Source: Mustelus asterias
Lineage: Eukaryota
DNA length: 64,000 nucleotides
Direction: 5' to 3'
Assembly: GCF_964213995.1 (NCBI RefSeq)
Contig: NC_135820.1
Coordinates: 5,456,001-5,520,000 of the forward strand
The notes beneath the pieces are model-generated. The model saw nothing but the letters and a program-made list of their open reading frames with translations. It was not told the DNA's origin and ran no database searches. Positions 1,682-30,615 of the stretch are shown one piece after another; position 1 is the first letter of the stretch, and each line of letters starts with the position of its first letter. The translations under genes were made by a program, and so were the position numbers.

Positions 1682-1945
1682 CTGGTGAGTCCAGCCGGTA
1701 CTCCCTCACACTGACACCGTGCTCATTCTGTGCCATACACAAGATCAGATTTTCAGATCCAGTTGGGTGAGTCAGTCTCAGGGAACTCTCCAGCAAGTGG
1801 GGTGCAATCTCTGAAATGTTTCTGATGATGTTTCTCCCACCGAGGTTCCATGTGATGTTTGCTGCGGGATTGGCTTTGACACGGCAGATACAGTGAACAT
1901 TCTTCAAACTGGTGCAGTTCAGATCTGATACTATTGTGGGTCTAT
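1682..1945 (-). CDS. Gene A C2-set exon 3
   Basis: 264 nt open to a possible donor CCAG|GTACAT. If unspliced it reads on GTSWNILTPAC to a TAG at 1647-1649. Confidence 0.8.
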
Positions 1946-7900: not shown

Positions 7901-10016
7901 AATCGAGGGATTGAGTTTCGGAGTCCAGGGATAATGATGCAGCTATATAAGACCCTAATCAGACCCCACTTGGAGTACTGTGCTCAGTTCTGGTCGCCTC
8001 ACTATAGGAAGGATGTGGAAAAGATTGAAAGGGTGCAGAGGAGATTTACAAGGATGTTGCCTGGATTGAGTGGCATGCCTTATGAGGATAGGCTGAGGGA
8101 GCTCAGTCTTTTCTCCTTGGAGAGACGAAGGATGAGAGGAGACCTAATAGAGGTGTATAAGATGTTGAGAGGCATAGATCGGGTGGACTCAGGGTGGAAA
8201 TGTCTGCTACGAGAGGACACAGGTTTAAGGTGCTGGGGGATAGGTACTGGGGAGATGTTAGGGTTAAGTTTTTCACACAGAGGGTGGTGGGCGAGTGGAA
8301 TCGGCTGCCGTCAGTGGTGGTGGAGGCGAACTCAGTGGGGTCTTTTAAGAGACCCCTGGATGAGTACATGGAGCTTAATAGGATGGAGGGTTATAGGTAG
8401 GTCTAGAAGGTAGGGATGTGTTCGGCACAACTTGTGGGCCGAAGGGCCTGTTTGTGCTGTAGTTTTTCTATGTTTCTATGTTTCCACACTGGATAATAAC
8501 ATTTTCTAAGGCATAAACATTCAGTGGGATCTCCCAGATAACCAGTCTTCAAAGCAAAGTTCTGACCTTAAGTTTTTTTGATGTTGTAAATTAATGGTTC
8601 CACTTTGCATTCGATGGTAACACTTTTGCGCACATTCAAAACCAATGAGATCTCCAAGGTAACATGCCTTTATCATAAAGTTAGGGCTCAGGTTGTGGGA
8701 CTCTCCTTGCCGGCTGAAAATTGGGTTCAAATCCCACTGCCGAGAATACATTAGGGCAGTGACACTTTATTAGTGATGAATCTGTTTGGGACGACCTCAG
8801 CTCATGAAAGGCGCTATTTAAATGCAGGACGCACTCCTGCCTTCATTAAACGGAGGGGTATTAACGACGGGATTCCTCCCATGTACTGACCGTGTGTCCC
8901 TCCATCCATTCAGAGTGTGAATCTACACTCAATGTTCAGTCTCGATTAAGGATTGTTTTTTGTTGTTGTTCTGTATAGTTCATTTTCCCAAATTACATTT
9001 AGTAAGTGGACAGCGGGGGGAATTTCTGCGGGTTTGGGATGTCAGTAACCTGTTTGAGTTCAGGTCAATAACATCACACACACCTGGATATGGTACACTG
9101 TACCACCTTGGAGTCGAAGCCTTTAACATTCGCCAATAGTAACAGCACACAATAACACCCTGCTCACTGAGAAAGCGGAATATAAACTCCTCACAAATGA
9201 ATGGAAAACCTACCCAGAATTGAGAGAGAGACAGGAATTTTCTGAAGGTGATTTTCGGCACTATTCCAGGGACTGGTCATCTTCACTCTGATGTAATAAT
9301 CCCCTTCATCTCCGCTCCTGATGTCCTTTATCAATAAGGAGAACTGTTTCTTTGCCACCTTTCCCTTCAGCTCAATTCTCCCTCTATATCCCGGGGCTGC
9401 TCTCCCCGGCTCTGCGGAATCATAGATAACAGAAACCCCAGGAGTACGAGGATCAGAACCCCCCTTCAGCCACAGAATCCGTGGATTGCTGTATGTGTCG
9501 GGATAATCAAATGTACACGGGATTTCTGCACACGAGCCTCTCACAGCCGTCACATTCCAGGGAATCCTCACAGACCATCGGGAACTATGGAGAACTGATA
9601 AACAAATATCCATTTCATTAATAATGAGCTGGCCAATGATAAACCGAATAAAATAATCCCAAAATTACAGCTCGCCACTGTTACATTTCCCTTGAAGCAT
9701 CCACTGTTATATATACATCGCCAACAATTACAACTCTGCAAGTTCCCATTGAAACGATTCAAATTTTAGTAAATATTTCATTCAAACACATTGAAGTCAG
9801 AATTCTGTCAATTCAGTAAAATACAGAATAGAATTTCCAATATGAGATGCATTACAGCCTCAACATTAAATACAAATTTTTAATTAACCATTCTTATCTC
9901 TGGACTTCATGAATATTTTATTTTATTCACCAGACGGATACACCCTCAATCGGAAATTATTAAAAGAATCTTGTACCTTGGATAAACATCAGGATGAGGG
10001 GAACACACTTCATCAT
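1682..10016 (-). CDS. Gene A: Siglec-like ectodomain (leader-V-C2-C2-C2), open reading frame, 3' part not identified in the window
   Basis: Exons 9977-10016, 9214-9594, 5592-5897, 3730-3987 and 1682-1945 are all phase 1 and open, and are a near-identical inverted copy of gene B exons 1-5. No TM exon was found in 1-1680. Confidence 0.75.
2028..2350 (+). mobile_element. HE1-type V-SINE (inverted paralog 51168-51487)
   Basis: A/B boxes, V-domain and TTCTATG tail. Confidence 0.88.
2631..2757. mobile_element. Possible MITE-like element (paralog about 50772-50897, related pieces about 52357-52482 and 52793-52932)
   Basis: GC-rich insert absent from the paralogous intron near 17700, bounded by imperfect inverted termini GCCGG(A/G)ATTTT...AAAATTCCAGC. 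Confidence 0.4.
3730..3987 (-). CDS. Gene A C2-set exon 2
   Basis: 258 nt open, TTTCAG| and |GTAAGT. Confidence 0.85.
4385..4676 (+). mobile_element. V-SINE variant with a different 3' tail (inverted paralog 48858-49150)
   Basis: Same head and V-domain, but ends GGCGACTAGGGGATTTTCAC...AATAAA. Confidence 0.8.
4881..5470 (-). mobile_element. Old CR1/HER1 3' fragment duplicated with the gene (also + at about 17020-17448, 33090-33517, 46805-47392)
   Basis: LYKTLVRPHLEYC...QRVVSVWN motif at the same position downstream of C2 exon 1 in four copies. Confidence 0.85.
5592..5897 (-). CDS. Gene A C2-set exon 1
   Basis: 306 nt open. The donor is T|GTCGGT, weaker than GTAGGT in gene B. Confidence 0.82.
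6395..8482 (+). mobile_element. 5'-truncated CR1/HER1 LINE, specific to gene A intron 2
   Basis: RT motifs (KSPGPDG, YRPVSLTS, DFSKAFD, GVPQGSVLGP, FADD), a frameshift near 7820 and a (TTCTATG)n tail. The paralogous site near 41700 is empty. Confidence 0.95.
9214..9594 (-). CDS. Gene A V-set exon V1 (open, E-strand Cys replaced by Phe)
   Basis: 381 nt with intact splice sites. YYIRV is kept, but KQFSLL replaces KQCSLL. Confidence 0.85.
9977..10016 (-). CDS. Gene A leader exon L1
   Basis: MMKCVPLILMFIQ + G|GTACAA, same as L6. Confidence 0.78.
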
Positions 10017-10794
10017 AATCATCACTACAGAAGGTTCACCATTGTAGGAAGGAACTGATTTCAGATTAAAACCTGGTGCTGAATTCCAGACGCTGCTAAT
10101 CGATTGCTGATCGATTACAATGGAATCGGAGCTGCTGGGCACCCCCTCATTGGGAATCGATTTAACCTCGCACAGTTTGGCAATCTCACTCCCTCTCAGC
10201 GACCGCCACTAGCTGTCTCAGACAGCGACAGCATGGAGCTGGGCAGTAATGTGTTACTCACACAGTTAGTGGGTGCAATGGTGCCAAACTAGTGACAAAG
10301 GCTCACCAACTGATAATGAACCCTTCATTGTGATCGGCTGTTCAGATAACAGGACAGGAACAAACATTTTAGACTGGAAAACCAAAAATAGCCCAGCAGC
10401 GCACAAGCTTCAGCCCGCTGTCTCACACATCTTTCTCTACTTTTCAGTCAGTACGCTCTGAATGTGATGTTGTGGTTATTTCTGTAACCGCTGCTTGCAA
10501 ATAAGTCGCTTCGCACCTTCAAACTTTTGCGCCAAAACATGTATCTTAAACGTCAATGGGACGTAAGCATTTTCTCGCACTAAATACTCGGAAAGACCAT
10601 GAGAGGGGAGGCTATTGTAGAGTGGTATTGTCACTAGTGGTACTGTCACTCACCATCTGACTTGGAAATACAGTCACCAAAGGCCAGAACAATGCTCTAT
10701 TCGAATCCCACCACAGATTCAATAAACTCTGGAACTAAAAATCTAATGACCATGAAACCATTGTTGAAACGTCCTGTCGGGGAGGAAATGTCCC

Positions 10795-11240
10795 ACAACA
10801 CCAGGTTAAAGTCCAACAGGTTTATTTGGTAGCAAATATCATAAGCTTTCGGAGCGATGCCCCTTCGTCAGATGGAGTAGTTATCTGTTCTCCAACAGTA
10901 CACAGACACAGAAATCAAGTTACAGAATACTAATTAGAATGCAAATCTCTACAGCCAGCCAGGTCTTAAAAGGTACAGATAATGTGGGTTCCCTCCACCC
11001 ACATTATCTGTACCTTTTAAGACCTAGCTGGCTGTAGAGATTTGCATTCTAATTAGTATTTTGTAACTTGATTTCTGTGTCTGTGTACTGTTGGAGAACA
11101 GATAACTACTCCATCTGACGACAGGGGATCGCTCCGAAAGCTTATGGTATTTGCTACCAAATAAACCTGTTGGACTTTAACCTGGTGTTGTGAGACTTCT
11201 TACTGTGCTTACCCTAGTCCAACGCCGGCATCTCCACATC
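10795..11240. mobile_element. Penelope-like element family 1, hairpin insertion
   Basis: Inverted arms of about 195 bp centred near 10990, 3' tail CCGGCATCTCCACATC, hammerhead motif in each arm. Confidence 0.8.
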
Positions 11241-12261
11241 GGGAAGGAACTGTGCCACCCTTACCAGGCCTGGCTTACATCTGGCTCCAGACCCACAACA
11301 CCAATGGAATTGACTCTTAACCGTCCCCCTCAAATGCCTTTAGCAAACTTAACCCCCAAAATAAAGCACAAGTCAATGTCCTTTAGGGAAGGAAATTTGC
11401 CGTCCTTACCTGGTCTGGCCTACATGTGACTCCAGAGCCACGGCAATGTGGTTGACTCTCAACTGCCCTCAGTCAATTGGGGATGGGCACTAAATGCTGG
11501 CCAACCAGTGTCGCCCATGTCCCATGAAGGAATGAAAATAAAATAGTTCCAGAACCAACAATGGGATCTGGAGAAAAAACAATTTGAAGAGGATTATTGT
11601 ACGGCTGGGATTAATTGGACTGAATTTCATTTTGTCAAATGTTAGAATTAACACATGAGGTCACATCGAAAAGTAGCAGATTAACTGCGGAAAAGTATTT
11701 GCTGAGAAAATGCTTACGTCCCATTGACGTTTAAGATACATGTTTTGGCGCCAAAGTTTGAAGGTGCGAAGGCCACTTATTTACAAGCAGCGGTTACAGA
11801 AATAACCACAACATCACATTCAGAGCGCATTGACTGAAAAGTAGAGAAAGATGTGTGAGATAGCGGGCAGAAGCTTGTGTGCTGGGCTATTTCTGGTTTT
11901 CCAGTCTAAAATGTTTGTTCCTGTCCTGTTATCTGAACAGCCGATCACAATGAAGAGTTCATTCTCAGTTGGTGAGCCTTTGTCACTAGTTTGGCACCAT
12001 TGCACCCACTAACTGTGTGAGTAACACATTACTGCCCAGCTCCATGCTGTCGCTATGTGAGACAGCTAGTGGCGGTCACTGAGAGAGAGTGAGATTGTCA
12101 AACTGTGCGAGGTTAAATCGATTCCCAATGAGGCGGTGCCCAGCAGCTCCGATTCCATTGTAATCGATCAGCGATCGATTAGCAGCGACTGGAATTCAGC
12201 ACCAAGTTTTAATCTGAAATCAGTTCCTTCCTACAATGGTGAACCTTCTGTAGTGATGATT

Positions 12262-15200
12262 ATGATGAAGTGTGTTCCCCTCATCCTGACGTTTATCCAA
12301 AGTACAAGATTCTTTTAATAATTTCCGATTGAGGGTGTATCCGCCTAGTGAATAAAATAACATATTCATTACTTATAGAGATAAGAATGGTTAATTAAAG
12401 ACTTGTAAATTAATGTTGAGGCAGTAATGCATCTCATATTGGAAATTCTATTCTGTATTTTACTGAATTGACAGAATTCTGACTTCAATGTGTTTGAGTG
12501 AAATATTTACTAGAATTTGAATCGTTTCAATGGGAACTTGCAGAGTTGTAATTGTTGGCGATGTATATATAACAGTGGATGCTTCAAGGGAAATGTAACA
12601 GTGCTGAGCTGTAATTTTGGGATTATTCTATTTGGTTTATCATTGGTCAGCTCATTATTTATGAAATGGATATGTGTTTATCAGTTCTCCATAGTTCCCG
12701 ATGGTCTGTGAGGATTCCCTGGAATGTGACGGCTGTGAGAGGCTCGTGTGCAGAAATCCCGTGTACATTTGATTATCCCGACACATACAGCAATCCGCGG
12801 ATTCTGTGGTTGAAGGGGGGTTCTGATCCTCGTACCCCTGGGGTTTCTGTTATCTATGATTCCGCAGAGCCAGAGAGAGCAGCCCCGGGATATAGAGGGA
12901 GAATTGAGCTGAAGGGAAATGTGACAGGGAAACAGTGCTCCTAATTGACAAAGGACCTCAGGAGGGGGGAAGGAGGGGATTATTACATCAGAGTGAAGAT
13001 GACCACTCCCTGGAATAGTGCCGAAGATCACCTTCAGAAAATTCCTGTCTCTCTCCCAATTCTAGGTATGTTTTCCATTCATTTGTGAGGAGTTTATATT
13101 CCGCTTTCTCAGTGAGCAGGGTGTCATTGTGTGCTGTTACTGTTGGCGAATGTTAAAGGCTTCAGCTCCAGGGTTGGTACAGTGAACCATATCCAGATGT
13201 GTTTGATTGTATTGACCTCAACACAAGTTCTAGAGAGGTTGAGGAAAGAATTGCGGAGTCAATCCTGCTTAGGAGTGAAAGTAATAGGGCAATTGTTATG
13301 GGGGATTTTAACTTGACTAATATTGACTGGAATTGTTATAGCTCTAGCTCGTTAGAGGGGTCAGTTTTTGTTCAAAGCGTGCAGGAAGGTTTTTTGACTC
13401 AGTATGTAGACAGGCCAACTAGAGGTGAGGCTATATTGGATCTGGTGCTGGGAAATGAGCCAGACCAGGTGCTAGACTTGGAAGTTGGTGTGCATTTTGG
13501 TGATAGTGACCACAATTCGGTTACGTTCACCTTAGTGATGGAAAGGGATAGGCATGAACCTCGGGCCAGTGGTTTTAGCTGGGGGAAGGGTAATTATGAG
13601 GCTATTAGGAGAGAATTAGGAAACATAGGTTGGACTAGGAGATTACAGGGACTGGGAACGTCCGACATGTGGAGTTTTTTCAAGGAGCAGCTACTGCGAG
13701 TCTGTGATAGGTATGTCCCTGTCAGGCAAGGAGGAATTGGTAGGGCTAGGGAACCGTGGTGCACCAAAAAAGTTTCTTTGTTGGTTAAAAAGAAAAAGGA
13801 GGCTTATGTTCGGATGAGACGTGAGCACTCGGGTAGTGCACTAGAAAGCTTTAGATTGGCTAAGAGGGAGTTGAAGAGCGAGCTTAGAAGGGCTAAAAGG
13901 GGACATGAGAAGACTTTGGCGGATAGGGTTAAAGAGAATCCTAAGGCGTTCTATAGGTATGTCAAGAACAGAAGGTTGGTTAGGGCAAGTTTAGGGCCAG
14001 TTATAGATGGCAGAGGGAAGTTATGTGTGGAACCGGAGGAGATTGGTGAAGCATTGAACCAATATTTCTCTTCGGTGTTCACGCAAGGGGACATGAATAT
14101 AGCTGAGGAGGACACTGGGTTGCAAGGGAGTAGAATAGACAGTATTACAGTTGATAAGGAGGATGTGCAGGATATTCTGGAGGGTCTGAAAATAGATAAA
14201 TCCCCTGGTCCGGATGGGATTTATCCAAGGATTCTCTGGGAGGCAAGAGAAGTGATTGCAGAGCCTCTGGCTCTGATCTTCAGGTCGTCGTTGGCCTCTG
14301 GTATAGTACCAGAAGATTGGAGGTTAGCGAATGTTGTCCCATTGTTTAAGAAGGGGAACAGAGACTTCCCCGGGAATTATAGACCGGTGAGTCTCACTTC
14401 TGTTGTCGGCAAGATGTTGGAAAAAATTATAAGGGATAGGATTTATAGTTATTTGGAGAGTAATGAATTGATAGGTGATAGTCAGCATGGTTTTGTGGCA
14501 GGTAGGTCGTGCCTTACTAACCTTATTGAGTTTTTTGAGAAAGTGACCAAGGAGGTGGATGGGGGCAAGGCAGTGGACGTGGTATATATGGATTTTAGTA
14601 AGGCGTTTGATAAGGTTCACCATGGTAGGCTTCTGCAGAAAATGCAGATGTATGGGATTGGGGGTGATCTAGGAAATTGGATCAGGAATTGGCTAGCGGA
14701 TAGGAAACAGAGGGTGGTGGTTGATAGTAAATATTCATCATGGAGTGCGGTTACAAGTGGTGTACCTCAGGGATCTGTTTTGGGGCCACTGCTGTTTGTA
14801 ATATTTATTAATGATCTGGATGAGGGTATAGTTGGGTGGATTAGCAAATTTGCTGATGACACCAAAGTCGGTGGTGTGGTAGACAGTGAGGAAGGGTGTC
14901 GTAGTTTGCAGGAAGACTTAGACAGGTTGCAAAGTTGGGCCGAGAGGTGGCGGATGGAGTTTAATGCGGAGAAGTGTGAGGTAATTCACTTTGGTAGGAA
15001 TAACAGATGTGTTGAGTATAGGGCTAACGGGAGGACTTTGAATAGTGTGGAGGAGCAGAGGGATCTAGGTGTATGTGTGCATAGATCCCTGAAAGTTGGG
15101 AATCAAGTAGATAAGGTTGTTAAGAAGGCATATGGTGTCTTGGCGTTTATTGGTAGGGGGATTGAATTTAGGAGTCGTAGCGTTATGTTGCAACTGTACA

Positions 15201-16897
15201 CAACTCTGGTGCGGCCGCACTTGGAGTACTGTGTGCAGTTCTGGTCCCCACATTACAGGAAGGATGTGGAGGCTTTGGAGAGGGTGCAGAGGAGGTTTAC
15301 CAGGATGTTGCCTGGTATGGAGGGGAGATCCTATGAGGAGAGGCTGAGGGATTTGGGATTGTTTTCGCTGGAAAGGCGGCGGCTAAGAGGGGATCTTATT
15401 GAAACATATAAGATGATTAGAGGTTTAGATAGGGTGGATAGTGATAGCCTTTTTCCTCTGATGGAGAAATCCAGCACGAGGGGGCATGGCTTTAAATTGA
15501 GGGGGGGTAGTTATAGAACCGATGTCAGGGGTAGGTTCTTTACCCAGAGGGTGGTGAGGGATTGGAATGCCCTGCCAGCATCAGTAGTAAATGCGCCTAG
15601 TTTGGGGGCGTTTAAGAGATCCGTAGATAGGTTCATGGACGAAAAGAAATTGGTTTAGGTTGGAGGGTCACAGTTTTTTTTTTTAACTGGTCGGTGCAAC
15701 ATCGTGGGCCGAAGGGCCTGTTCTGCGCTGTAATGTTCTATGTTCTATGTTCTATGTTCAAACAGGTTATTGACATTCCAAACCCGCAGAAATTCCCGCC
15801 GCTGTCCACATACTAAATGTAACTTGGGAAAAGATTTGGAACTACACAGAACAACGAAAAACAACCCTTAATAGAGACTGAACATTGAGTGAAGGTTCAC
15901 ACTCTGAATGGACAGGAAGGTGCACACGGTCAGTACATAGGAGGAATTCCGTCGCCAATTCCCCCCGATTTTCCGTTTAATGAAGGTAGGAGTGTGTCCT
16001 GCATGTAAATAGCACATTTCATGAGCTGAGGTCGTTCCAAACAGATTCATCACTAATAAAGTGTCACTGCCCTAATGTACTCACACTCTCGGCAGTGAGA
16101 TTTGAACCCACTTTTCAGCCGGAGAGGCGAGTCCCAGAACCTGAGCCCTAACGTTTGTTCAAGGCAAGTTACCTTGGAGATCCCATTGGCCGTGATACAG
16201 AGCCGGAAAGTGTTACCATCGAATGCAAAGTGGCAACATTAATTTACAATATCAAAAAAACTTAAATCCAGAACCTTGCTTTGAAGACAGGTTATCTGGG
16301 AGATCCCACTGAATGTTAATGTCCTGGAAACTCCAGTGTGGAGTGAAAAATCCATGGATAATGTCCAAACCTCCCTCAGAAAATAGAATTCAATATTAAT
16401 AAAATGTTTCCAAGGCAAGGACAAGAAACTGAATGAGGGGAAATATCATTCCCAGGTCGAGTAAACAGACTGGTGTTTACTGAATTGTGTTCAAAGGGGG
16501 AAGGATGTTTTTCTATTTTTCTATTTTATCCAGTTTTACCCGTTAATTATTACCCTGTCTGGTCAGGACCAGGGCATCCAGAGACACTTCTGACAAATAA
16601 TGTGATACAACCCGGGACAGTTGATGGCTGGAAAACCAGTCCAGTTCACCTGCTCACTCACCCAGAGTTGTTCAGTTCCAGAGTTTAAACTGGAGTGGAT
16701 TGGAGAAGAATCTCCCATTCTGCCGGGCGCTCTAACTTCACAACACACCAGGAACAGTTTGGAGGATTCCTGGACGGTTTCATCAACTTTCTCCTTCACC
16801 CCATCACTGGATCAGCATGGGGAATCCCTGACCTGTAAACTCATCAGTGGCGATGGGCAGACAACTGTCCAAGAATCTCTGAGACTGGATGTGCAGT
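12262..16897 (+). pseudogene. Cassette 2: L2 (12262-12301), V2 (12685-13065), 5'-deleted C2 exon 1 (16611-16897)
   Basis: V2 has a TTA>TAA nonsense codon at 12942-12944. The C2 exon has lost its acceptor and first codons. No downstream + strand exons of its own. Confidence 0.88.
13220..15758 (+). mobile_element. 5'-truncated CR1 LINE with an uninterrupted ORF2 (partial APE, RT, C-terminus)
   Basis: ORF 13199-15658 has GDFN, GDSDH and a complete RT, followed by a (TTCTATG)n tail. Confidence 0.96.
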
Positions 16898-19014
16898 GTA
16901 GGTATCTGCGCTGGGATTTATTCAATCACCCTGACGGTAAATCAGATCAGAATCTGTCTGAGTCTCGCCTGGAAAACTGAACATTTGTAAAACTGAGATT
17001 GCGAGATTTCATTTTTAAGTTGTGACGTGTTGTTGAAGTTGTACAAGACATTCGTACGGCCACACTCGGAACACTGTTTACAGTTCTGTTCACCGTATTA
17101 CATAAATAATATTATTAAACTGGAAAGAGTGCAGAAAAGATTTACTAGGATGCTGACGGGACTTGATAGTTTGAGTTATAAGGAGAGGCTGGATAGACTG
17201 GGACTTTCTTCCCTGGAGGGTAGGAGGGTTAGGGGTGACCTTATAGATGTCTATAAAATAATGAGGGGCATAGGTAAGGTAGATAGTCAACACCTTTTCC
17301 CAAAGGTCGGGCAGTCTAAAACTGGAAGGCATAGGTTTAAGGTGAGAGGGGAGAGATACAAAAGGGCTCAGAGGGGCATTTTCTTCACTCAGAGAGTGTT
17401 GAGTGTCTGGAACGAGTTGCCAGAGGTAGTAGTAGAGGTGGGTAAAATAATGTATATACTATTTTAAATAAACCCAATAATCAAAAATAAACTGGTGGTG
17501 GGAGAGGGGTAGTGGGTCTGGCGGGGGGGGGGGGGGGGGGGGGGGTAGGGAGGTGTGACAGCCACTGGTGAGACACTGACAAAAATCGAAAACTTAAAGG
17601 GGACTTACAAAATCAGATTACAATGTCCTTCCCAGCCCCAATGGTGCCTATTGTCACAAAAGCAATAATTTATACTACTGACATTGGAATAATAAATCAT
17701 CCTAAATCACTCCAGAGGCATACTTGCAAACAGAAGTTGAGACCAGCTACATAAGGAGATGTCTCAGAGGGCAACCACCAAACAGGGTAAGGGCCTGATT
17801 TTAAGCGGTATCTCAAAGGAGGAGAGTAGCTCGACAGAATGTCGAGGATGGGGAATTTAAAACATTTGCGCCCAAGTGACTAAAGTCCTGGCTGGCAATG
17901 ATCCAGTCATTAAAGTCTGGGGTGTACAAGAGACCCAGAGGCACGAAGGGAACATATTGCTGCCTCTGTATTTGCCACACATCCCACCTAATCTGAAATA
18001 TATTTCCAAGGACCGGGTTGGGTTATTCCATCAGTTGGCCCACTTTCTCCCATTTTCCCTGACCTTTCTGGGAATATTCCTGACACTGGCCCCTGTGGTG
18101 ATTGTTGTGTTGACATTGGGGAATATCATACACGTTACAATTCATGGGAGTGACATTATTGATGTCCCTGTGTGTATTGAAGGGTCCCACTCATCACTTA
18201 CATTGCACGGAGATGTGTGTGGAACTCCTGGCGGTGCCCAGATTATTTGCAGCCTCGCACCAATATTCCCTTCATCTTCAGAACTCACATTGTGAATGAA
18301 GAGCTTCAGCTCCGCGGCGGGAGAGTTGCTGATCTCTACCCCACGTTGACTCAATGTTAAATTGACTGGGGGGATCCCTGAGCTTTGCAATACAATAAGA
18401 ATGAACTTTCTTCCACTGATACTATAGAGGTGTTGAGGATTGGTTTGCAAAGTGCACCTGAAACCACAAGTTTGTTGGTGCTATAAGAAAATGAAGATTA
18501 AAATTTAAAAAAATAAGTTTCCCTCAGTGTCACCAAACAGGTGCTGGTTTGTTGCAACCTGGGGATTTTCACAGTGACTTAATTGCAGTGTTAATGTAAG
18601 CCTACTTGTGACACTAATAAATAAATAATTCTTCACTTCAGTTAATTGTTTAATTACCTGGCTGAACTTCTAATCAATAAACCCATTAACTCCAAAGGCC
18701 ATTCTTCCCAGATTGAGAGTTCTTAACTTTCCCAATGGTGTAGAACACAATTTTAGCATCAAGACCAACACCCCAGCAGCTTCACACAGAAACTAATGAT
18801 CATTTGATTTTCTGACTTGCACGATATCAACGGTTAGCAATGTAGAAGGACAACATCTCACCAACATTCAATCAGATTACTCTCTCTATCTAATGTTGTA
18901 AAATTATTCATTTCTGATTTGAGAACAATTCAGCTCAATGTAATTTAGCTCAGAGGATAACATAGGTTTAGTTTCAGTAACACATGGGGAGGGAAGAGTT
19001 AAAATTATTCTTAC

Positions 19015-19068
19015 TCCCTGGTGATTCAGTGGTTAGGATTCGGCGCTTTCACTGCCACGGCCCGGTTT
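19015..19068 (+). pseudogene. Truncated tRNA-Glu(TTC)-like sequence fused to a SINE (second copy 35052-35105)
   Basis: TCCCTGGTGATTCAGTGGTTAGGATTCGGCGCTTTCACTGCCACGGCCCGG matches the 5' two-thirds of vertebrate tRNA-Glu. The T-loop and 3' acceptor strand are missing. Confidence 0.75.
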
Positions 19069-19380
19069 GGCAGCACGGTGACACAGTGGTTAGCACGACT
19101 GCCTCACAGCGCCAGGGACCTGGGTTCAATTCCAGCCTCAGTTGACTCTCAGTGTGGAGTTCTGCCCGTGTCTGCGTGGGTTTCCTCTGGGCGCTCCGGT
19201 TTCCTCCCACACTCCAAAGATGTGCGGGTTTGGTGGATTGGCCATACCAAATTGCCCCTTAGTGTCAGGGGGACTAGGATGTTAAATATGTGGGGTTAAG
19301 GGATAGAGCTTGGGTGGGATTGTTGTTCGTGCAGACTCGATGAGCCTAATGGCCTCCTTCTGCACTGGAGGATTCTGTAA
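19069..19380 (+). mobile_element. HE1-type V-SINE (paralog 35106-35416)
   Basis: GGCAGCACGGTGACACAGTGGTTAGC head, V-domain and CR1-type tail. Confidence 0.85.
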
Positions 19381-20539
19381 AAGCTTTGGATATCAATGGT
19401 TTTTAATTCTGTGTGAATGCATTTAATTGAAGTGAAATTATATATTATGACTGTTTGTGAAGTATTTTTATTTAACTGAGAAAACATCTTTTAAGTAATA
19501 TATATTAACTAAAATTTAACATGTCTGTGTCTCTCACTAAAAATGGTAACACTACAAATATTCCAAGCAGTTAGTTAAAAATGCAGAAGCGGCAGTGATG
19601 GAATTTGAATGTTCATGATCTGCTTAACAGTGACATCATGTTTCAATATAAGAACAAACAATGCAACATCGAATTTGGAATATCATTAACAAGCCTGAGA
19701 TAACATCAGATCCAAGGGCCCTGGATTTGATATCATCAAGATGCTTTGGTATTTATGTCACAGATAATACAAGAAAGGAATGGCATCTTAAGATTGTGCC
19801 ATATCGGTGGCAATCAGATATTCAGAATCATAGAATCACAGAATCCCACAGTGCAGAAGAGGCCCCTCGGCCCATCGAGTCTGCACTGATGCACAAAATG
19901 CCCTGCTCACCTAATCCCACTTGCCAGCACTTGGCCTATAGCCTGATGGATATTGGGATGGATCAATAGAAACATCACTATGTCACTATAGAGTGGTGAA
20001 TCTGTGGAACTCTTTGCCACATAAGGCTGTGGAGGCCAGGTCATTGAGTTTCTTTAAGACAGAGATAGATAGGTTCTTGATTAATAAGGCGATCAGGAGA
20101 ATGGAAATGAGAAAGAAAATCAGCCATGATTGAATGGCAGAGCAGACTCGATGGGCTGAGTGGCCTAATTCTGCTCCTATGTCTAATGATCTTATATTGG
20201 GTGGCATATTGCAATTGACTATGATGTTTGACATGGTAAAGAATGGCAATTTAACATGCAATAAAATCGAATTAAACAAAAGACTTAATAAGAAAAATAT
20301 ATAATTGTATTTTTTTGGAATGATTTGATTTGATTTATTATTGTCACATAGAAACATAGAAACCCTACAGTGCAGAAGGAGGCCATTCGGCCCATCGAGT
20401 CTGCACCGACCACAATCCCACCCAGGCCCTACCCCCACATATTTTACCCGCTAATCCCTCTAACCTACGTATCCCAGGACTCTAAGGGACAATTTTTGAC
20501 CTGGCCAATCAACCTAACCCACACATCTTTGGACATATA

Positions 20540-21017
20540 TGAGCATGCAGTGGAAAGTATTGTTTCTTGCACGCGATACAGACAAAGCATATCATTCCGA
20601 GAGAACGAAATGAGAGATTGCAGAATGTGGTCTTATAGTCATAGCTAGGGTGCAGAGAAAGATCAACTTAATGCAAGGTAGTCCATTCAAAAGTCTGACA
20701 GCAGCAGGGAAGAAGCTGTTCTTGAGTTGGTTGGTACGTGACCTCAGACTTTTGTATCTTTTTCCCGATGGAAGAAGTTGGAAGAAAGTATGTCTGGAGT
20801 GCGTGGTATCCTTGATTATGCTGGCTGCTTTGCCGAGGCAGCGGGAAGTGCAGACAGAGTCAATGGATGGGAGGCTGGTTTGCGTGATGGATTGGGCTAC
20901 ATTCACGACCTTTTGTAGTTTCTTGCTGTGTTGGGCAGAGCAGGAGCCATACCAAGCTGTGATACAACCAGAAAGAATGCCTCCTATGGTACATCTGTAA
21001 AAATTGGTAAGAGTCAC
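20540..21017 (-). mobile_element. Rex1/Babar-like non-LTR retrotransposon 3' fragment (second copy about 38740-39241)
   Basis: LTNFYRCTI..ILSGCITAWYGSC...LLPSGKRY..RT..LKNSFFP.AVRLLN C-terminal motif. Confidence 0.7.
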
Positions 21018-21919
21018 AAAGTTGGGATTTTTGGAAGGCTTAGTGGTATTCTGTAGCTTGGCAATCTGAGGATTTCCCTTTAGCCATTCTTTATGTTCGT
21101 GTCTGTCTATGTAAGTTTTATATGTTTTTTAAAATAAATCTTGGTACGCTTTCAAACCGAAAGATTTTGCCTTTGCGAGATTTAATTTTCAAAATATTTA
21201 GTTTTTCTAAGGAAGCAGGCCGTCATTCGAAATATCCCCACTTCAAGCAACCTGTGGGATAATAGTGGGTTCGAAGCAAACTCATTGAGCTACCAATATC
21301 ACTCCGTGTGTCAGCGACAATGTGAAATAATATGATGGACCAGGAACGGCTAAGAGTTTGATTGATAGACAACGGGGAGAAACGACCTCCAACCCTAACA
21401 AATAGATCATGGCGGCTCAGTACTTCAATGGCGGTTGATATCGCTCTACTTAAAAATGAAATCATGCAATCACAGTTTTACAAATGCTCAGTTTTCCAGG
21501 CGAGACTCAGACAGATTCTGATTTATCGGCAGGGTGGTTGAATAAATCCCAGCGCAGATACCGACACTGCACATCCAGTCTCAGAGATTCTTGGACAGTT
21601 GTCTGCCCATCGCCACTGATGAGTTTACAGGTCAGGGGTTCCCCATGCTGATCCAGTGATGGGGTGAAGGAGAAAGTTGATGAAACCGTCCAGGAATCCT
21701 CCAAACTGTTCCTGGTGTGTTGTGAAGTTAGAGCGCCCGGCAGAATGGGAGATTCTTCTCCAGTCCACCCCAGTTAAAACTCCGGAACTGAACAACTCTG
21801 GGTGAGTGAGCAGGTGAACGGGCCTGGTTTTCCAGCTATCAACTGTCCCGGGACTGAGATATGCAGTTTCTCTGTAAGGAACAGAGGAAATTCAAGTTAC
21901 CCAAGATTCCAACCAGTGA

Positions 21920-22377
21920 ATGCGTTGAGCTTCACTGGAACATTGCAGCAAGAAAAGGACTTGCTCCCATGCCCACATGTCTATCCTTGGCTTGCTGCAA
22001 TGTTCCAGTGAAGCTCAATGCAAACTGGAGGAACAGCATCTCATCTCCTGGCTAGGCACTTTACAGCCTTCCGGTCTCAACATCGAATTCAACAACTTCA
22101 GATGATTTGCTCTACTCCACCTCGACCCCTTTGTTTTCATTCCATTTTATTTAATTTTTTTACTATTCTCTACCTTTTATTTCTTTATGGTCTTTCTTCA
22201 TTTTTCGCTCCCCCCTCACCCCCACTCTTTCCTTCCCCCTACTTCATCCCTCTTTTCTCCCTCCCGCTTACCCTTTTCTACATTCTACTTCTGGCCCATT
22301 CCACCCCGCACCCACCCCCCCCCCCCCCCCCCCCCCCCCACCCAAATCTCCATCTGTCACAGTTTACAGCTTTCCCC
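21920..22377 (+). mobile_element. Penelope-like element family 2 fragment (paralog about 40130-41560, 3' end also at about 1483-1592)
   Basis: Encodes KLEEQHLI..LGTLQPSGLNIEFNNFR*, resembling a GIY-YIG C-terminus, with a short inverted copy at the 5' end. Confidence 0.7.
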
Positions 22378-22792
22378 AAGGCGGCCTTCACGACACACGA
22401 CAGCGCAGAGTCGCTGAGCAGAAACTGATAGCCAAGTTCCGCACACATGAGGACGGCCTAAACCGGGATGTTGGATTCGTGTCACATTATGAGTAACCCC
22501 CACAGCTTGCCTCCTGGACTTGCAGGCTGTCCTGTCTGGAGACAATACACATCTCTTTAACCTGTGCTTAATGCTCCCTCCACCCACATTGTCTGTATCT
22601 TTAAGACCTGGCTGGTTGTAGGGATTCGCATTCTAATCAGTATTCTGTAACTTGATTTTGTGTTTCTGTGCACTGTTTTAGAGCACATTTCCACTCCATC
22701 TGATGAAGGAGCAGCGCTCCGAAAGCTTATGGTATTTGTTACCAAATAAACCTGTTGGACTTTAACCTGGTGTTGTTAAAACTCTTACTGTG
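22378..22792 (+). mobile_element. Penelope-like element family 1, 3' fragment
   Basis: Encodes QGGLHDTRQRRVAEQKLIAKFRTHEDGLNRDVGF*, resembling a GIY-YIG C-terminus (R..E..I...T..GLN), followed by a pLTR with a hammerhead motif. Confidence 0.8.
22696..22732 (+). ncRNA. Minimal type I hammerhead ribozyme motif
   Basis: CCAT-CTGATGA-A-GGAGC-AGC-GCTCC-GAAA-GC-TTA-TGG: both core boxes, a 5-bp stem II, palindromic AAGCTT stem III and a CCA/TGG stem I. Confidence 0.75.
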
Positions 22793-23354
22793 ATCTCCCA
22801 GATAACCAGTCTTCAAAGCAAAGTTCTGACATTAAGTTTTTTTGACATTGTGAATTAATGTTTCCACTTTGTATTCAATGGCAACACTTTCCGGCTCTGT
22901 ATCGTGCCAATTCACAGCCAATGGGATCTCCAAGGTAACTTGCCTTTAACAAAGGTTAGGGCTCAGGTTGTGGGACTCTCCGGCTGAAAAGTGGGTTCAA
23001 ATCCCATTGCCGAGAGTGTGAGTACTTTCGGGCAATGACACTTTATTAGTGATGAATCTGTTTGGAACGATCTCAGCTCATGAAAGGCGCTATTTAAATG
23101 CAGGACACACTCCTACCTTCATTAAACGGAGGGGTATTAACGACGGGGTTCCTCCCATGTACTGACCGTGTTCACCTTCCTGTCCATTCAGAGTGTGAAC
23201 CTTCACTCAATGTTCAACCTCGATTAAGGGTTGTTTTTTGTTGTTGTTCTGTACAGTTCCAAACCTTTTCCCAAGTTGTACTTAGTAAGTGGACAGCGGC
23301 GGGGATTTCTGCGGGTTTGCAATGTCAGTAACCTGTTTGAGTTCAGGTCAATAA

Positions 23355-26300
23355 ATCCTTATTTTTTCGCGGGGTTTTAGTTAGTTAAGAGTTTGAGTGG
23401 GAACCGGAAGTAGGAAGGGAGCGGCGTGACGTGGGAAGGATTTTTGTAGTTTTTTTTTAGCGCGAGGTATAAAAAATAGGCGGCTCTAACCAGCGGGCAC
23501 GTTGAGAGCGGGCAGCGTTGAGAGTGGGCAGCAGAGTGAGCTGGGAGTAGAGTGAGAGTTGTAAGGGCTTTGGCTCGAAGGGCTTAGGCGGAAAGGGCAA
23601 GGCGGGGTAACTTTAATTCTTAAGTACGTTTCTCTGTGTTCCTTGAAACAGAAAGGAAAATTATGACTGTGAGGCCAGTCTGTTGTTCCCAATCTAGGAT
23701 GTGGGAGGTCCTGGAGGCTCCTGGCCTCCCAGACGTCCATATCTGTGATGGGTGTGTTGAGCTGCGGTTCCTAAGGGACCGTGTTAGAGAACTGGAACTG
23801 CAGCTCGAGGATCTTCATCTGGTTAGGGAAAATGAGGAGGTGATAGACAGGAGCTATCATCAGGTGGTCACACCAGGGCCACGGGAGGCAGGCAAGTGAG
23901 TAACGGCCAGGAGGAGGAAAGCTCGGGTGATAGAGAGCACCCTGGTGGATGTGCCCCTTCACAATAAGTACTCCTGTCTGAGTACTGCTGGGGGGGACAG
24001 CCCACCTGGGCGAAGCAGCAGTGGCTGTGTCTCTGGAGCAGAGTCCGGCCCTGTAACTCAGAGGGCTAAGGAAAGGAGGAGGAAGGCAGTATTAATCGGG
24101 CACTCAACAGTAAGGGGGTCGGACAGGCATTTTTGTGGAGGCAGACGGGAGTCTCGGGTGGTGGTCTGCCTCCCTGGTGCCGGGATCCGGGATGTCTCTG
24201 GTTGCATCCCAGAAATCCTGAGGGGGGAGGGAGAGGAGCCAGAGGTCGTGGTACATATTGGTACTGCTGAGATAGGTAGGAAGAGGGAAGGGGTCATGAA
24301 AAGAGAATATAGGGAGTTAGGTCGACAGTTGAGAAGGAGGAACACAAAGGTAGTAATCTCAGGATTACTGCCTGTGCCACGGGAAAGTGAGAGCAAGAAT
24401 GGAGTGAGGTGGAGGATGAATGCGTGGCTGAGGGAATGGTGCAAGGGGTAGGGATTCGGGTTCCTGGATCATTGGGACCTCTTTAGGGGCAGGTGTGACC
24501 TGTATAAAGAAGACCGGTGGCACTTGAATCCCAAGGGGACCAATATCCTGGCAGGAAGGTTGGCTAAGGCTACTGGAGAGACTTTAAACTAGAAAGGTTG
24601 GGGGGAGGGAATCATGATGAGGTGACTGGGAGCGAGGAGGGTAGCCCGCAAATAGAGAGGGATTGTAGACAGCGTAAGAGGGAGAATAGACGGGTGATGG
24701 AGAAGGGGAGAGCTCAGACCAATGGTTTGAGATGTGTCTATTTTAATGCCAGGAGTGTAGTAAATAAAGTGGATGAGCTTAGAGTGTGGATCAATGCTTG
24801 GAAGTCTGATGTGGTGGCTATTACGGACACTTGGGGAGAGGGACAGGACTGGATACTTCAGGTGCCGGGTTTCAGATGTTTCAGAAAGGTACAGAGAGGG
24901 AGGCAGAAGATGGGGGGGGGGAGTGGCGCTGCTGATCAGGGATAGTGTCACAGCTGTAGAGAAGGTGGATGCCATGGAGGGGTTGTCTACGGAGTCTCTG
25001 TGGGTGAAAGTTCTGAGCGGGGAGGGGTCGATAACTTTGCTGGGTGTTTTCTATAGGCCGCCCAATAGTAACAGGGATGTTGAGGAGCAGATAGGGAAAC
25101 AGATCCTGGAGAGATGTAGTAATAACAGGGTTGTCGTGATGGGAGACTTTAATTTCCCAAACATCAATTGGAATAACCTTAGGGTAAGGGGTTTGGATGG
25201 GGAGGAGTTTATTAGGTGTGTTCTGGAGGGTTTCCTGACACAGCATGTGGATAAACCTACGAGAGGAGAGGCTGTACTCGATCTGGTACTGGCTAATGAG
25301 CCTGGACAGGTGTCGGATCTCTCAGTGGGGGAGCATCTTGGGGATAGTGATCATAACTCTATCTCCTTTACGCAAACATTGGAAAGAGATAGGATCAGGC
25401 AAGCTAGGAAAGTGTTTATCTGGAGTAAGGGGAAATATGAAGCCATCAGGCAGGAGATTAGAGGCGTAAATAGGAAGGAGGTATTCTCGAGGGAAAGTAC
25501 TGAAGTAAGGTGGCAGATTTTCAAGGAATGTTTGTCTGGAGTTCTACATGACAACATTCCGATGAGACAGGGAGGTTTTGGTAGGTTACGGGAACCGTGG
25601 CGCACGAAAACTGTGCTGAACCTAGTCAAAAGGAAAAGGAAAGCGTACAATAGGTTCAGAGAGCGAGGCGATGATGGGGATCTAGATGGGTTAATACGGC
25701 TTGCAGGAAGGGGCTTAAGAAGGAAATTAGGAGGGCCAGAAGGGGTCATGAGAAGGCCTTGGCAGGTAAGATGAAGGAGAACCCTAAGGCATTCTATAAA
25801 TATGTGAAGAGTAAAAGGATGAGATGTGAAGGAATAGGACCTATAAAATGTGAAGGTGAGAAAGTCTGTACGGAACCGGAAGAAATAGCAGAGGTGCTTA
25901 ATGAATACTTTACCTTGGTATTCACGGTGGAAAAAGACCTGGGTGGTTGTACTACAAGATTGCGGCGGACTGAGAAGATTGAGTTTGTCACATTAAGAAA
26001 GAGGATGTGTTGGAAATTTTGAATAGCATCAAGATAGATAAGTCGCCGGGACTGGATGGGATGTACCCCAGGTTACTGTGGGAGGCAAGGGAAGAGATTG
26101 CAGAGCCTCTGGCGATGATCTTTGTGTCGTCGATAGAGACAGGAGAGGTTCTGGAGGATTGGAGGATTGCGGATGTGTTTCCTATATTCAAGAAAGGGAA
26201 TAGGGATAGCCCAGGAAATTACTGACCGGTGAGTCCAACCTCAGTGGTTGGTAAGTTGATGGAGAAGATCCTGAGGGACAGGATTTATGAACATTTAGAG

Positions 26301-27645
26301 AAGTTTAGTCTGCTCAAAAGTAGTCAGCACGGCTTTGTCAAAGGCAAATCGTGCCTTACGAGCCTGGTGGAGTTCTTTGAAAATGTGACTAAACACGTTG
26401 ATGAAGGAAAAGCAGTAGATGTGGTTTACATGGACTTCAGCAAGGTGTTCGATAAGGTCCCCCATGCAAGACTTCTCGGGAAAGTGAGAGGGCATGGGAT
26501 CCAAGGGGCTGTTGCCTTGTGGATCCAGAACTGGCTTGCCTGCAGAAGACAGAGAATGGTTGTAGATGGGTCTTTTTCTGAATAGAGGTTGGTCACCAGT
26601 GGAGTGCCCCAGGGATCTGTTCTGGGACCCTTGCTGTTTGTAATTTTCATAAATGACCTGGATGAGGAAGTGGAGGGATGGGTTGGTAAGTTTGCTGACG
26701 ACACGAAGGTTGGTGGTGTTGTGGATAGTTTGGAGGGATGTCAGAAGTTGCAGAGTGACATAGATAGGATGCAAGACTGGGCAAAGAAGTGGCAGATGGA
26801 CTTCAACCTGGATAAATGTGTAGTGGTCCATTTTGGCAGGTCAAATGTGATGAAGGAGTATAATATCAAGGGTAAGACTCTTAGCAGTGTAGAGGATCAG
26901 AAGGACCTTGGGGTCTGGGTCCATAGGACTCTTAAATTGGCCCCGCAGGTAGAGGAGGTGGTTAAGAAGGCGTATGGTGTGCTGGCCTTCATCAATCGAG
27001 GGATTGAGTTTAGGAGTCGGGAGATAATGATGCAGCTTTATAAGACCCTCGTCAGACCCCACTTAGAGTACTGTGCTCAGTTCTGGTCGCCTCATTACAG
27101 GAAGGATGTAGAAATTATTGAAAGGGTGCAGGGAAGATTTACAAGGATGTTGCCTGGATTGGGTGGCATGCCTTATGAAGATAGGTTGAGGGAGCTTGGT
27201 CTTTTCTCCTTGGAGAGACGAAGGATGAGGGGTGACCTGATAGAGGTGTACAAGATGTTGAGAGGTATAGATCGGGTGGATTGTCAAAGGCTTTTCCCAG
27301 GGCTGAAATGGCTGCTACGAGAGGACACAGGTTTAAGGTGCTGGGGAGTAGGTACAGAGGAGATGTCAGGGGTACGTTTTTCACTCAGAGGGTGGTGGGT
27401 GAGTGGAATCGGCTGCCGTCAATGGTGGTGGAGGCAAACTCGATAGGGTCTTTTAAGAGACTTCTGGATGAATACATGGGACTTAATAGGATTAAGGGTG
27501 ATATTACCTATCACCCTTAATCCTATTAAGTCCCATGTATTCATCCATTCACCCTATATATGCTGAGGTAGGTAGGGAAATGACCGACTCGACTTGTGGG
27601 CTGAAGGACCTGTTTGTGCTGTAGTTTTTCTATGTTCTATGTTCT
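23355..27645 (+). mobile_element. Full-length degenerate CR1/HER1 LINE (5'UTR, ORF1 esterase, ORF2 APE-RT)
   Basis: ORF1 has a Cys-rich/zipper N-terminus and SGNH blocks (LIGHS, VVHIGT, WHLNPKG). ORF2 has several stops and frameshifts. AATAA TSD at 23350-23354 and 27646-27650. Empty site at 42296. Confidence 0.95.
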
Positions 27646-30615
27646 AATAACATCAAACACACCTAGATATGGTTCACTGTACCAGCCCTGGAGCTGAAGC
27701 CTTTAACATTCGCCAACAGTAACAGCACACAAGGACACCCTGCTCACTGAGAAAGGGGAATATAAACTCCTCACAAATGAATGGAATACCTACCCAGAAT
27801 TGAGAGAGGGGAATTTTCTGAAGGTGATCTTCTGCACTATTCCAGGGAATGGTCATCTTCACTTTGATGTAATAATCCCCTTCATCCCCCCGCCTGATGT
27901 CCTTTATCAATAAGGAGCACTGTTTCTCTGTCACCTTTCCCTTCAGCTCAATTCTCCCTCTATATCCCGGGGTTGCTCTCCCCGGCTCTGCGGAATCAGA
28001 GATAACAGAAACCCCAGGGGTACGAGGATCAGAACCTCCCTTCAGCCACAGAATCCGTGGATTGCTGTATGTGTCGGGATAATCAAATGTGCACGGGATT
28101 TCTGCACACGAGCCTCTCACAGCCGCCACATTCCAGGGAATCCTCACAGACCATCGGGAACTATGGAGAACTGATAAACAAATATCCATTACATAAATAA
28201 TGAGCTGGCCAATGATAAACCGAATAAAATAATCCCAAAATTACAGCTCAGCACTGTTACATTTCCCTTGAAGCATCCACTGTTATATATACATCGCCAA
28301 CAATTACAACTCTGCAAGTTCCCATTGAAACTATTCAAATTCTAGTAAATATTTCATTCAAACACATTGAAGTCAGAATTCTGTCAATTCAGTAAAATAC
28401 AGAATAGAATTTCCAATATGAGATGCATTACAGCCTCAACATTAATTTACAAATCTTTAATTAACCATTCTTAACTCTGTAGGTCATGAATATTTTATTT
28501 TATTCACCAGACGGATACACCCTCAATCGGAAATTATTAAAAGAATCTTGTACCTTGGATAAACATCAGGATGAGGGGAACACACTTCATCATAATCATC
28601 ACGACAGAAGGTTCACCATTGTAGGAAGGAACTGATTTCAGATTAAATCTGGTGCTGAATTCCGCTCGCTGCTAATCGATTGCTGATCGATTACAATGGA
28701 ATCGGAGCTGCTGGGCACTCCCTCATTGGGAATCGATTTAACCTCGCACAGTTTGGCAATCTCACTCCCTCTCAGTGACCGCCACTAGCTGTCTCAGACA
28801 GCGACAGCATGGAGCTGGGCAGTAATGTGTTACTCACACAGTTAGTGGGTGCAATGGTGCCAAACTAGTGACCAAGGCTCACCAACTGAGAATGAACCCT
28901 TCATTGTGATTGGCTGTTCAGATAACAGGGGACAGGAACAAACATTTTAGACTGGAAAACCAAAAATAGCCCAGCACACAAGCTTCAGCCCGCTATCTCA
29001 CACATCTTTCTCTACTTTTCAGTCAATGCGCTCTGAGTGTGATGTTGTGGTTATTTCTGTAACCGCTGCTTGCAAATAAGTCGCTTCGCACCTTCAAACT
29101 TTTGCACCAGAACATGTATCTTAAATGTCAATGGGACGTAAGCATTTTCTCAGTAAATACTTTTCCGCAGTTAATCTGCTACTTTTCGATGTGACCTCAT
29201 TCTAACATTTGACAAAATGAAATTCAGTCCAATTAATCCCAGCCGTACAATAATCCTCTTCAAATTGCTTTTTCTCCAGATCCCATTGTTGGTTCTGGAA
29301 CTATTTTATTTTCATTCCTTCATGGGACATGGGCGACACTGGTTGGCCAGCATTTAGTGCCCATCCCCAATTGACTGAGGGCAGTTGAGAGTCAACCACA
29401 TTGCTGTGGCTCTGGAGTCACATGTAGGCCAGACCAGGTAAGGACAGCAGATTTCCTTCCCTAAAGGACATTAACTTGTGCTTTATTTTTGGGGTTAACT
29501 TTTGGTTGATTTCCACAAATCGAGACAGTGGAATGTGTTTACTAACGTGAAACTGTTTATTAATAGTCAGAGCAAGCAGTAGTAGTATAGTGAATAGTTT
29601 ATTTATTCGTCAGAAGTAAGGCTTACATTATCTCTGCAAATGAAGTTACTGTGAAAATCCCCTAGTCGCCACACTCCGGCGCCTGTTCGGGTCAATGCAT
29701 CTAACCAGCACGTCTTTCAGACAGTTGGAGGAAACCGGAGCACGGGAGGAAACCCACGCAGACACGGGGAGACACTGGGACACATGCTGCTAATTTCCTG
29801 ATAGCACGGACAGAATTAACTACACCCAGGTCAGGTTTAATTGATGGCAGCGATTCTCCTGTGCTTGTTTAATGGGAGAGAAACACTCAGTGCCTGGGAT
29901 CCCTCACCAAGGATTAAGTTAAAGTGAAAAGTTAAAGTTTATTCATTAGTGTCACAAGTAGGCATACATTAACATTCGAATAAAGTTACTGTGAAAAATC
30001 CCCTAGTTGTCACACTCCATCGCCTCCCCTCTCATGGTCTTTCTGAATATTTACTGAGAAAAAATGCTTACGTCCCATTGACATTTAAGACACCTGTTCG
30101 GGCTTAAAACCTTGAAGGTGCGAAGGCGACTTCTTTGCAAGGAGCGGTTACAGAAGTAACCACAACATTGCATTCAGAGCGTATTGAGAGAAAAGGAGAG
30201 AAAGATGTGGGAGATAGCGGGCTGAAGCTTGTGTACTGGGCTATTTTTGGCATTGGAGTCTGAAATGTTTGTTCCTGTCCTGTTGTCTGTACAGCTGATC
30301 ACAATGAAGAGTTCATTCCCTGTTGGTGAGCCTTTGTCACTAGTTTGGCACCATTGCACCCACTAACTGTGTGAGTAACACATTACTGCCCAGCTCCATG
30401 CTGTCGCTGTCTGAGACAACTAGTGGCGGTCACTGAGAGGGAGTGAGATTGCCAAACTGTGCGAGGTTAAATCGATTCCCAATGAGGGGGTGCCCAGCAG
30501 CTCCGATTCCATTGTAATCGATCAGCAATCGATTAGCAGCGTCTGGAATTCAGCACCAGGTTTTAATCTGGAATCAGTTCCTTCCTACAATGGTGAACCT
30601 TCTGTAGTGATGATT

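Follow-up and report, generated by a model that had tools for sequence, protein, structure and literature searches.

A flipped spacer in a shark cluster of paired Siglec-like receptors, most likely the scar of an old inversion

The stretch of DNA analysed here, a 64-kb window (G000:C20:5456001-5520000) of the 3.68-Gb genome of the shark Mustelus asterias, contains a cluster of six Siglec-like arms named 1L, 1R, 2L, 2R, 3L and 3R, where L denotes the minus and R the plus strand, and the spacer between one head-to-head pair of these arms lies reversed relative to that of the next. Each arm comprises a leader exon of 46 nt, a V-set exon and its own C2 exon, and a search of the genome with the 1.4-kb arm returned six copies (6 scored candidates), every one inside the window. 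The two outer arms, 1L and 3R, are open and the inner four (1R, 2L, 2R and 3L) are broken, so that what a first-pass annotation of the sequence had taken for an array of V units is really two whole genes with four truncated copies between them. The NCBI M. asterias proteins P0003 and P0004, whose database names are assigned automatically, align to exons of the window with identities of up to 100%.

The intact gene 1L occupies 1682-10590 on the minus strand (leader 10022-9977, V-set 9594-9214, C2 5897-5592 and the third and fourth immunoglobulin (Ig) exons, Ig3 and Ig4, at 4011-3730 and 1945-1682), with a long interspersed nuclear element (LINE) at 6398-8484, and its last exon, which encodes the membrane segment and a short tail, lies 4 kb left of the window on the same strand (L001:6000-5888). 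The predicted product of 463 aa has AG/GT exon borders and no internal stop, the C2 splice donor being a weak GTCGGT, and it carries an arginine in the membrane segment, about nine residues beyond that segment and no motif resembling an immunoreceptor tyrosine-based inhibitory motif (ITIM). Because of this short tail and the Arg-bearing membrane segment, 1L is likely an activating-type receptor. The intact gene 3R (43615-61100, plus strand; leader 44379-44424, V 44807-45187, C2 46381-46686, Ig3 49524-49805, Ig4 51568-51870) continues, according to the P0003 exon map, into a membrane exon at 53585-53666 and tail exons at 57620-57707 and 60936-61100; its predicted open frame of 550 aa has the tail motifs VTYAAV and VLYAAL, and 3R is likely an inhibitory-type receptor with a tyrosine-motif tail. 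At 51865-51880, 3R is without the 11 bp that carry the Ig4 splice donor of 1L, cryptic GT sites lie just downstream, and the identity between the two genes stops here. The database model P0004 (1682-42786, minus strand) links exons of 3L to those of 1L and to the 1L tail exon, a join that is probably an annotation artefact, same-strand read-through to a shared tail exon being possible.

Pfam V-set, Ig_CD22 and C2-set_2 domains were detected above cut-off in the order expected of a Siglec, an N-terminal V-set followed by C2-type Ig domains, and the PDB matches of the V domain include sialoadhesin and Siglec-5 (E ~1e-11), pIgR reaching a comparable score over several weak stretches. The F-strand arginine of Siglec V-sets is present as well, YYIR of 1L being aligned with YNFR of sialoadhesin; the residue is Arg in 1L and 3R and Lys in 2L, and we take the arginine of 1L and 3R to be the sialic-acid binding residue of Siglecs. 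As in paired receptors, the ectodomains are nearly identical (402 of 430 aligned residues between 1L and 3R, the last few columns lying beyond the ectodomain), and the tails comprise ITIM-like motifs in 3R and a short tail with a charged membrane residue in 1L. The NxxR motif, as defined in the available text of PMC2413239, is not found at the start of the 1L membrane segment, which has FPIR. Among annotated proteins, limited to 364-1159 aa, a search for homologues of the 1L tail exon returned the query alone (1 of 16 candidates), and the start of the Scyliorhinus protein P0005 matches this exon in antisense (62.5% over 48 aa, E 2e-14). The P0005 residues opposite the Arg codon and the stop force Arg/Lys and TAA/TAG whatever the codons, and therefore the charged residue and the short tail of 1L look conserved. 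These predicted proteins suggest that sharks possess a pair of Siglecs, one inhibitory and one activating with an Arg-type tail, that evolve in concert.

The four arms between the two genes are pseudogenes. Arm 1R (11696-17448, plus strand) has a stop at V codon 102 and a deleted C2 5' end, ends after C2 and holds a LINE at 13227-15757; arm 2L (17704-29161, minus strand) has a 4-bp V deletion in common with 2R, a C2 stop, an Ig3 frameshift and no Ig4, and holds an insertion at 23355-27645. Arm 2R (30046-33517, plus strand) carries 2-bp and 4-bp V deletions and a stop at codon 126 and ends after C2, and arm 3L (33793-43614, minus strand) has a V frameshift, has lost its 5' end with the third spacer and ends after Ig3. 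The LINE-type insertions of 1R (13213-13227) and 2L (27646) are different elements in the same intron, about 13 bp apart, 68% identical and in opposite orientation relative to the gene, and are independent events at almost one site.

Two upstream markers reveal the flip: X lies 5' of arms 1L and 2R and Y lies 5' of arms 1R and 2L, both about 570 bp upstream of the ATG. BLAST of 10400-11900 against 28980-30250 aligned 11345-11876 (Y and arm) to 29502-28980 at 95.3% and 10402-10615 (arm and X) to 30233-30019 at 87.4%, both on the minus strand, which bears out the proposal of the first-pass annotation that the spacer is flipped in pair 2 relative to pair 1; the positions given there for X and Y were correct within about 5 bases. 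The centre of the spacer is thus reversed relative to its direct homologue, as expected of inversion between inverted repeats. The shared X spans just ~22-27 bp and is common to both pairs as an exact 22-mer, X1 at 10591-10612 (plus strand, 5' of 1L) and its reverse complement X2 at 30022-30043 (minus strand, 5' of 2R), with two occurrences in the window and two in 184 kb. Y1 (11345-11695, plus strand, 5' of 1R), a repeat fragment with unique sequence, and its reverse complement Y2 (29162-29502, minus strand, 5' of 2L) differ at 7 of 335 compared bases (2.1%), with unequal rates in distal Y (6 of 120) and proximal Y (1 of 215; both counts by eye), so that Y divergence gives no single date for the flip.

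Between the markers, the centre of spacer 1 (10613-11344) is an old repeat copy interrupted by an inverted pair of younger repeat copies (10790-11240) without a spacer-2 counterpart, and the centre of spacer 2 (29503-30021) is made up of two old repeat copies besides two stretches that occur nowhere else in 194 kb. The two centres share no homology except one 81-bp match between copies of a dispersed repeat, and the old repeat copies in both fit a long separation. Pair 3 has neither X nor Y, its spacer having been removed at a deletion junction (43614-43615) close to a repeat copy at 43661-43896. One short repeat family accounts for 10790-11240, where the arms of the inverted pair are 96.5% identical, and for 22378-22792, 40212-40976 and 43661-43896, several of these being inverted pairs or palindromes.

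Four sequencing runs, all in the form of contigs, were compared with the assembly; runs X1 and X2 (run names, distinct from the markers) are one sample, possibly the assembly's own source, and run X4 is a different sample. At 29449-29625 and 29996-30351, which cover the Y2-centre and X2-2R junctions, short-read contigs of runs X1 and X2 agree with the assembly without a single difference, and the spacer-3 deletion junction is also present in a contig of run X4. A whole pair is spanned by none of the contigs, and among the pieces listed none bridges the candidate breakpoint in 1L discussed below with 1L's own letters.

About 260 kb away, at L013:5775-6033, lies a 70%-identical copy of the 5' non-coding region of the arms. 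It continues into Y-like sequence, the proximal 40-50 bp of Y being found upstream of it, and therefore Y probably represents the original upstream side, and X the side at which the first duplication was joined. No Siglec exons, and hence no seventh Siglec copy, were found in the 10 kb examined around this 5' region, which may be a conserved promoter belonging to some remoter relative, or else a relic.

The relationships among the outer parts of the arms show how the cluster grew. The tail-to-tail block at 15758-23354 is a direct copy of parts of 31570-42300, the 1R-tail-2L and 2R-tail-3L blocks being 7.0-7.5% apart, and the older split between inner and outer copies is at 13-15%. In the outer arm parts, exclusive sharing among the six arms joins 1L with 3R (17 sites), 2L with 3L (8) and 1R with 2R (5), with bootstrap values of 100, 99 and 74, respectively. 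Because the two tail-to-tail blocks run in the same direction and the outer arms join 1R to 2R and 2L to 3L, pair 2 arose by direct tandem duplication and is no inverted copy of pair 1; one inverted duplication of the whole pair, the alternative that the first-pass annotation had named, does not explain the flanks. Within 60 kb on each side, no larger inverted duplication of at least 350 bp and at least 80% identity flanks the cluster, besides dispersed and tandem repeats.

In the outer genes, the segment 1672-10506 is an inverted match of 43898-51867 (1L/3R, 93-95%) that ends at the border of the last Ig exon, Ig4, and past that border the 1L intron is similar to a read-through tail in Scyliorhinus P0008 (8 of 10 aa, E 3.1, weak alone). 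Because identity ends with this exon and the Scyliorhinus P0008 and P0005 matches lie beyond it, 1L appears to be an old gene in place and not a recent copy of 3R. The head-to-head pair 1L/3R is thus presumably old, with ectodomains kept alike by gene conversion as in SIGLEC11 and SIGLEC16 (PMC5701461). The cluster would have started from this pair, with an activating-type 1L and an inhibitory-type 3R, and two tandem duplications, at about 13-14% and 7% divergence, would have added the truncated inner copies between them, after which all spacers would have been oriented with Y left and X right; gene conversion would then have homogenised the arms, 1L and 3R up to the end of the last Ig exon. 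That arms within a pair do exchange sequence is evident from the 4-bp frameshift shared by 2L and 2R. The promoter-proximal stretch of 2R (30046-30230) is 15-17% from 1L, 1R and 2L and 10% from 3R, and is likely an unconverted relic of the old plus-strand lineage.

We next consider the inner parts of the arms, whose variants were read from one haplotype only. In the quartet 1L, 1R, 2R and 3R, the pattern of shared variants shifts between 2R positions 31279 and 31316, which correspond to 9351-9314 in 1L and 12928-12965 in 1R: inside this break 9 sites group 1L with 2R and 1R with 3R versus 4 that group 1L with 3R and 1R with 2R, and outside it the counts are 0 versus 26 (Fisher test, 3.4e-6; 0 of 1000 permutations). 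The sites that unite 1L and 1R (5 inside, 2 outside) were left out of the switch test. The switch is also seen with single-nucleotide polymorphisms (SNPs) only (9:4 inside versus 0:24 outside) and with CpG sites removed (5:4 versus 0:20, p 0.001), and the four sites immediately inside the break all have the swapped pattern. Across the six arms, the commonest exclusive pairs inside are 1L with 2R and 1R with 3R (3 sites each), both reciprocal groups thus having private alleles. The change of pattern at 2R 31279-31316 is significant, but the inner grouping that would make it a reciprocal switch of both arms is weak. When each of the 15 possible swaps of inner halves was undone, the 1L/1R swap gave the shortest tree (296 steps, tied with the topologically equal 2R/3R swap), three steps fewer than the unswapped arrangement (299), the 2L/2R swap requiring 300.

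The 1L/1R swap restores Y to the minus arm and X to the plus arm in both pairs, the 2R/3R swap does not, and therefore a single V-exon crossover accounts for the switch as well as the flip. From these alignments we give a little better than an even chance to the reading that one germline crossover within the V exons of the inverted arms 1L and 1R turned ~3.6 kb and so reversed the spacer of pair 1. The turned segment would extend over about 9330-12950, with its left breakpoint at 9314-9351 in the V exon of 1L (minus strand) and its right one at 12928-12965 in that of 1R (plus strand), both intervals being placed by the quartet switch. That some inversion of a spacer centre occurred, whether in pair 1 or in pair 2, has about two chances in three.

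Several observations weigh against a crossover between 1L and 1R. The small p-value demonstrates a change of pattern and not a genuine swap of the inner part: the three inner groupings have 9, 4 and 5 sites, and 9 versus 4 alone is not significant (p ~0.13, by hand). Bootstrap support in the inner tree is just 35-52%, the inner region being nearly star-like with 2-6% among all arms. The quartet was picked after inspecting the data, one of 6 tried, and the quartet 1L, 1R, 2L and 2R gave no significant break (inner sites 7 flip, 4 direct and 3 within-pair; outer sites 5, 13 and 5). At 2.1%, Y1 and Y2 are closer than the 7% of the tandem duplication (p 3e-5), too alike for its age, and therefore an extra conversion of Y is required. 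The promoter-proximal 184 bp of 1L is 16% from 2R and 5-6% from the Y-linked arms, and from these distances it looks converted by a Y-linked arm. Gene conversion is pervasive among the arms, and the ancestral spacer orientation is itself a reconstruction, spacer 3 having been deleted.

In the strongest rival, nothing was inverted in place and a long conversion or template switch wrote the centre of pair 2 (or 3) backwards over that of pair 1, or two one-sided conversions supplied 1L with X and 1R with Y. The youth of Y1/Y2, the private alleles common to 1L and 2R inside the break and the 1-bp insertion and SNP that 1R shares with 2L at 2R position 30761-30762 all speak for copying, as does the human palindrome P6, where, in the available text of PMC3723533, conversions prevail over inversions by 56 to 3, with tracts that may be longer than 9 kb. 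Yet copying predicts an inner 1R nearest to 2L, whereas three exclusive SNPs join it to 3R and one to 2L; the spacer centres, which have nothing in common and both hold old repeat copies, would need two deletions soon after a recent copy; and the two-conversion form needs two one-sided events and a loss of the old Y. We consider copying unlikely, though a rival to be taken seriously. Inversion of the centre of pair 2 by a 2L x 2R crossover would give the X/Y flip and the 1L+2R sharing equally well, and it could draw on the frameshift and SNPs common to 2L and 2R at 31314-31397 and on two sites shared by 2R and 3L (30285-30290). It is nevertheless improbable: the 2L/2R swap lengthens the tree, 2L groups with 3L on either side of the V exon, and the promoter-proximal variants of 2R are shared with its same-strand relative 3R.

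A whole-pair inverted duplication, with pair 2 or 3 copied backwards to give pair 1, or an inversion of the whole cluster followed by crossover between both haplotypes, would accommodate the inverted 1L/3R match and the young Y, and the whole-pair form was our initial reading, given up because of the exon map together with the conservation of 1L's intron and tail exon. These routes are very improbable, since the outer half of 1R is sister to 2R and not 2L, the tail-to-tail blocks are direct copies, the 1L/3R match stops at an exon border beyond which 1L retains its old intron and tail exon, and by shared sites the inner 1L is nearer to 2R than to 3R, the opposite of what they predict. Finally, an assembly error that reversed one centre would be helped by the fact that no read or contig examined spans the whole pair, but is hardly credible with arms that differ by 3-10%, a longest identical run of 122 bp between the aligned 1L and 1R arms and exact contig matches at two spacer-2 junctions. 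The claim of the first-pass annotation that recombination between arms inverted one of the centres is therefore retained as the best single explanation, with a candidate breakpoint in pair 1 and non-reciprocal copying still its rival.

Beyond the cluster, weak Ig V-like tblastn matches at L012 (~window 117464-117661; E 0.04) and L007 (~68074-68136; E 1.4) perhaps mark a further gene of the Ig superfamily on the right. In L002-L006 and L010-L011 there are minisatellite arrays, with repeat units of ~33/66, 37/74 and 60 bp, several of them common to distant sites.

We conclude that the flipped spacer was most likely left behind by an old inversion within this cluster of paired receptors, an ordinary repeat-mediated inversion rather than a programmed switch. 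A programmed V-switch would use several functional V units for one constant part; here the V exons of 4 of the 6 arms have stops or frameshifts, each arm has its own C2, and the candidate break lies in ordinary coding sequence. With 1R, 2L, 2R and 3L broken, there is therefore no repertoire of working V units for switching, and frequent present-day flipping seems unlikely because the perfect identity of 1L and 1R reaches only 122 bp. The evidence bears on the germline past, and nothing in it points to ongoing or somatic switching; the statement in the first-pass annotation that the array undergoes inversion thus finds support for a past germline event and none for a continuing process.

The crossover between 1L and 1R would have been a single germline recombination event, resolved as a crossover inside the V exons and turning the 3.6 kb, by which the working gene 1L would have acquired the promoter, leader and first two thirds of V from its neighbour. 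If the break is in V, these parts move jointly onto another gene body and X and Y each retain their own leader, so that, contrary to the idea that the flip swaps which upstream region drives which V, X and Y would carry their own promoter, leader and 5' V and only the 3' body would change. The functional effect may be small because the inverted neighbour, 1R, is now a pseudogene. A more speculative reading, which we think quite doubtful, is a germline head-shuffling cassette, in which variant promoters, leaders and V domains kept in the four dead inner copies would be loaded into the working activating and inhibitory genes by repeated nested inversions together with conversion. Along the inner arm, swapped and unswapped patterns alternate five times (2R 31189-31279, 30729-31013, 30527-30542, 30310 and 30128-30182), as expected if nested flips had occurred an odd number of times; on this reading, both orientations of the locus would exist as a polymorphism.

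The mechanism of inversion itself is already well known, and the locus offers a mapped candidate for crossover, beside conversion, as a route by which a paired Siglec trades its ligand-binding head with that of an adjacent copy; a literature search, with most subscription papers outside its coverage, returned no report on paired Siglecs of sharks or on an inversion at any Siglec pair. In primates, SIGLEC11 and SIGLEC16 are an inhibitory and an activating gene arranged head to head, and gene conversion homogenises their upstream region and ectodomain exons as far as a boundary at an exon end, with a nonfunctional allele as donor (PMC5701461, available text). The shark genes 1L and 3R are likewise alike up to an exon end, with ectodomains presumably homogenised, which does not imply orthology, but they are separated by ~34 kb that contain four truncated copies, and one spacer is flipped; the main text of PMC5701461 is without the words 'inversion' or 'inverted'. 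According to the available text of PMC2413239, FcR-gamma-coupled NxxR activating receptors include LILRA2, NKp46, GPVI, OSCAR, Fc-alpha-R and Xenopus XFL TM1, and 1L resembles them in having a short tail free of ITIM-like motifs and an Arg on the N-terminal side of its membrane segment, whereas it has Phe, not Asn, three residues before the Arg. Recombination between the arms of the human Y palindrome P6 is mostly conversion and rarely a centre-inverting crossover, recognised by a phase switch of arm variants (PMC3723533, available text), a signature like the one proposed for the shark arms; the P6 arms are >99.9% identical, in contrast to shark arms of ~2-5 kb and 90-97% identity with a candidate break in a coding exon. 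A yeast 24-kb flip/flop region, recurrently flipped across strains (PMC9731477, available text), shares with the shark locus inverted repeats that contain genes and are homogenised, and a centre that occurs in either orientation, but the shark locus is known in one assembled arrangement and its longest perfect run is just 122 bp. By analogy with what is available of these accounts, the cluster appears to work like the conversion of SIGLEC11/16 combined with a palindrome-type inversion.

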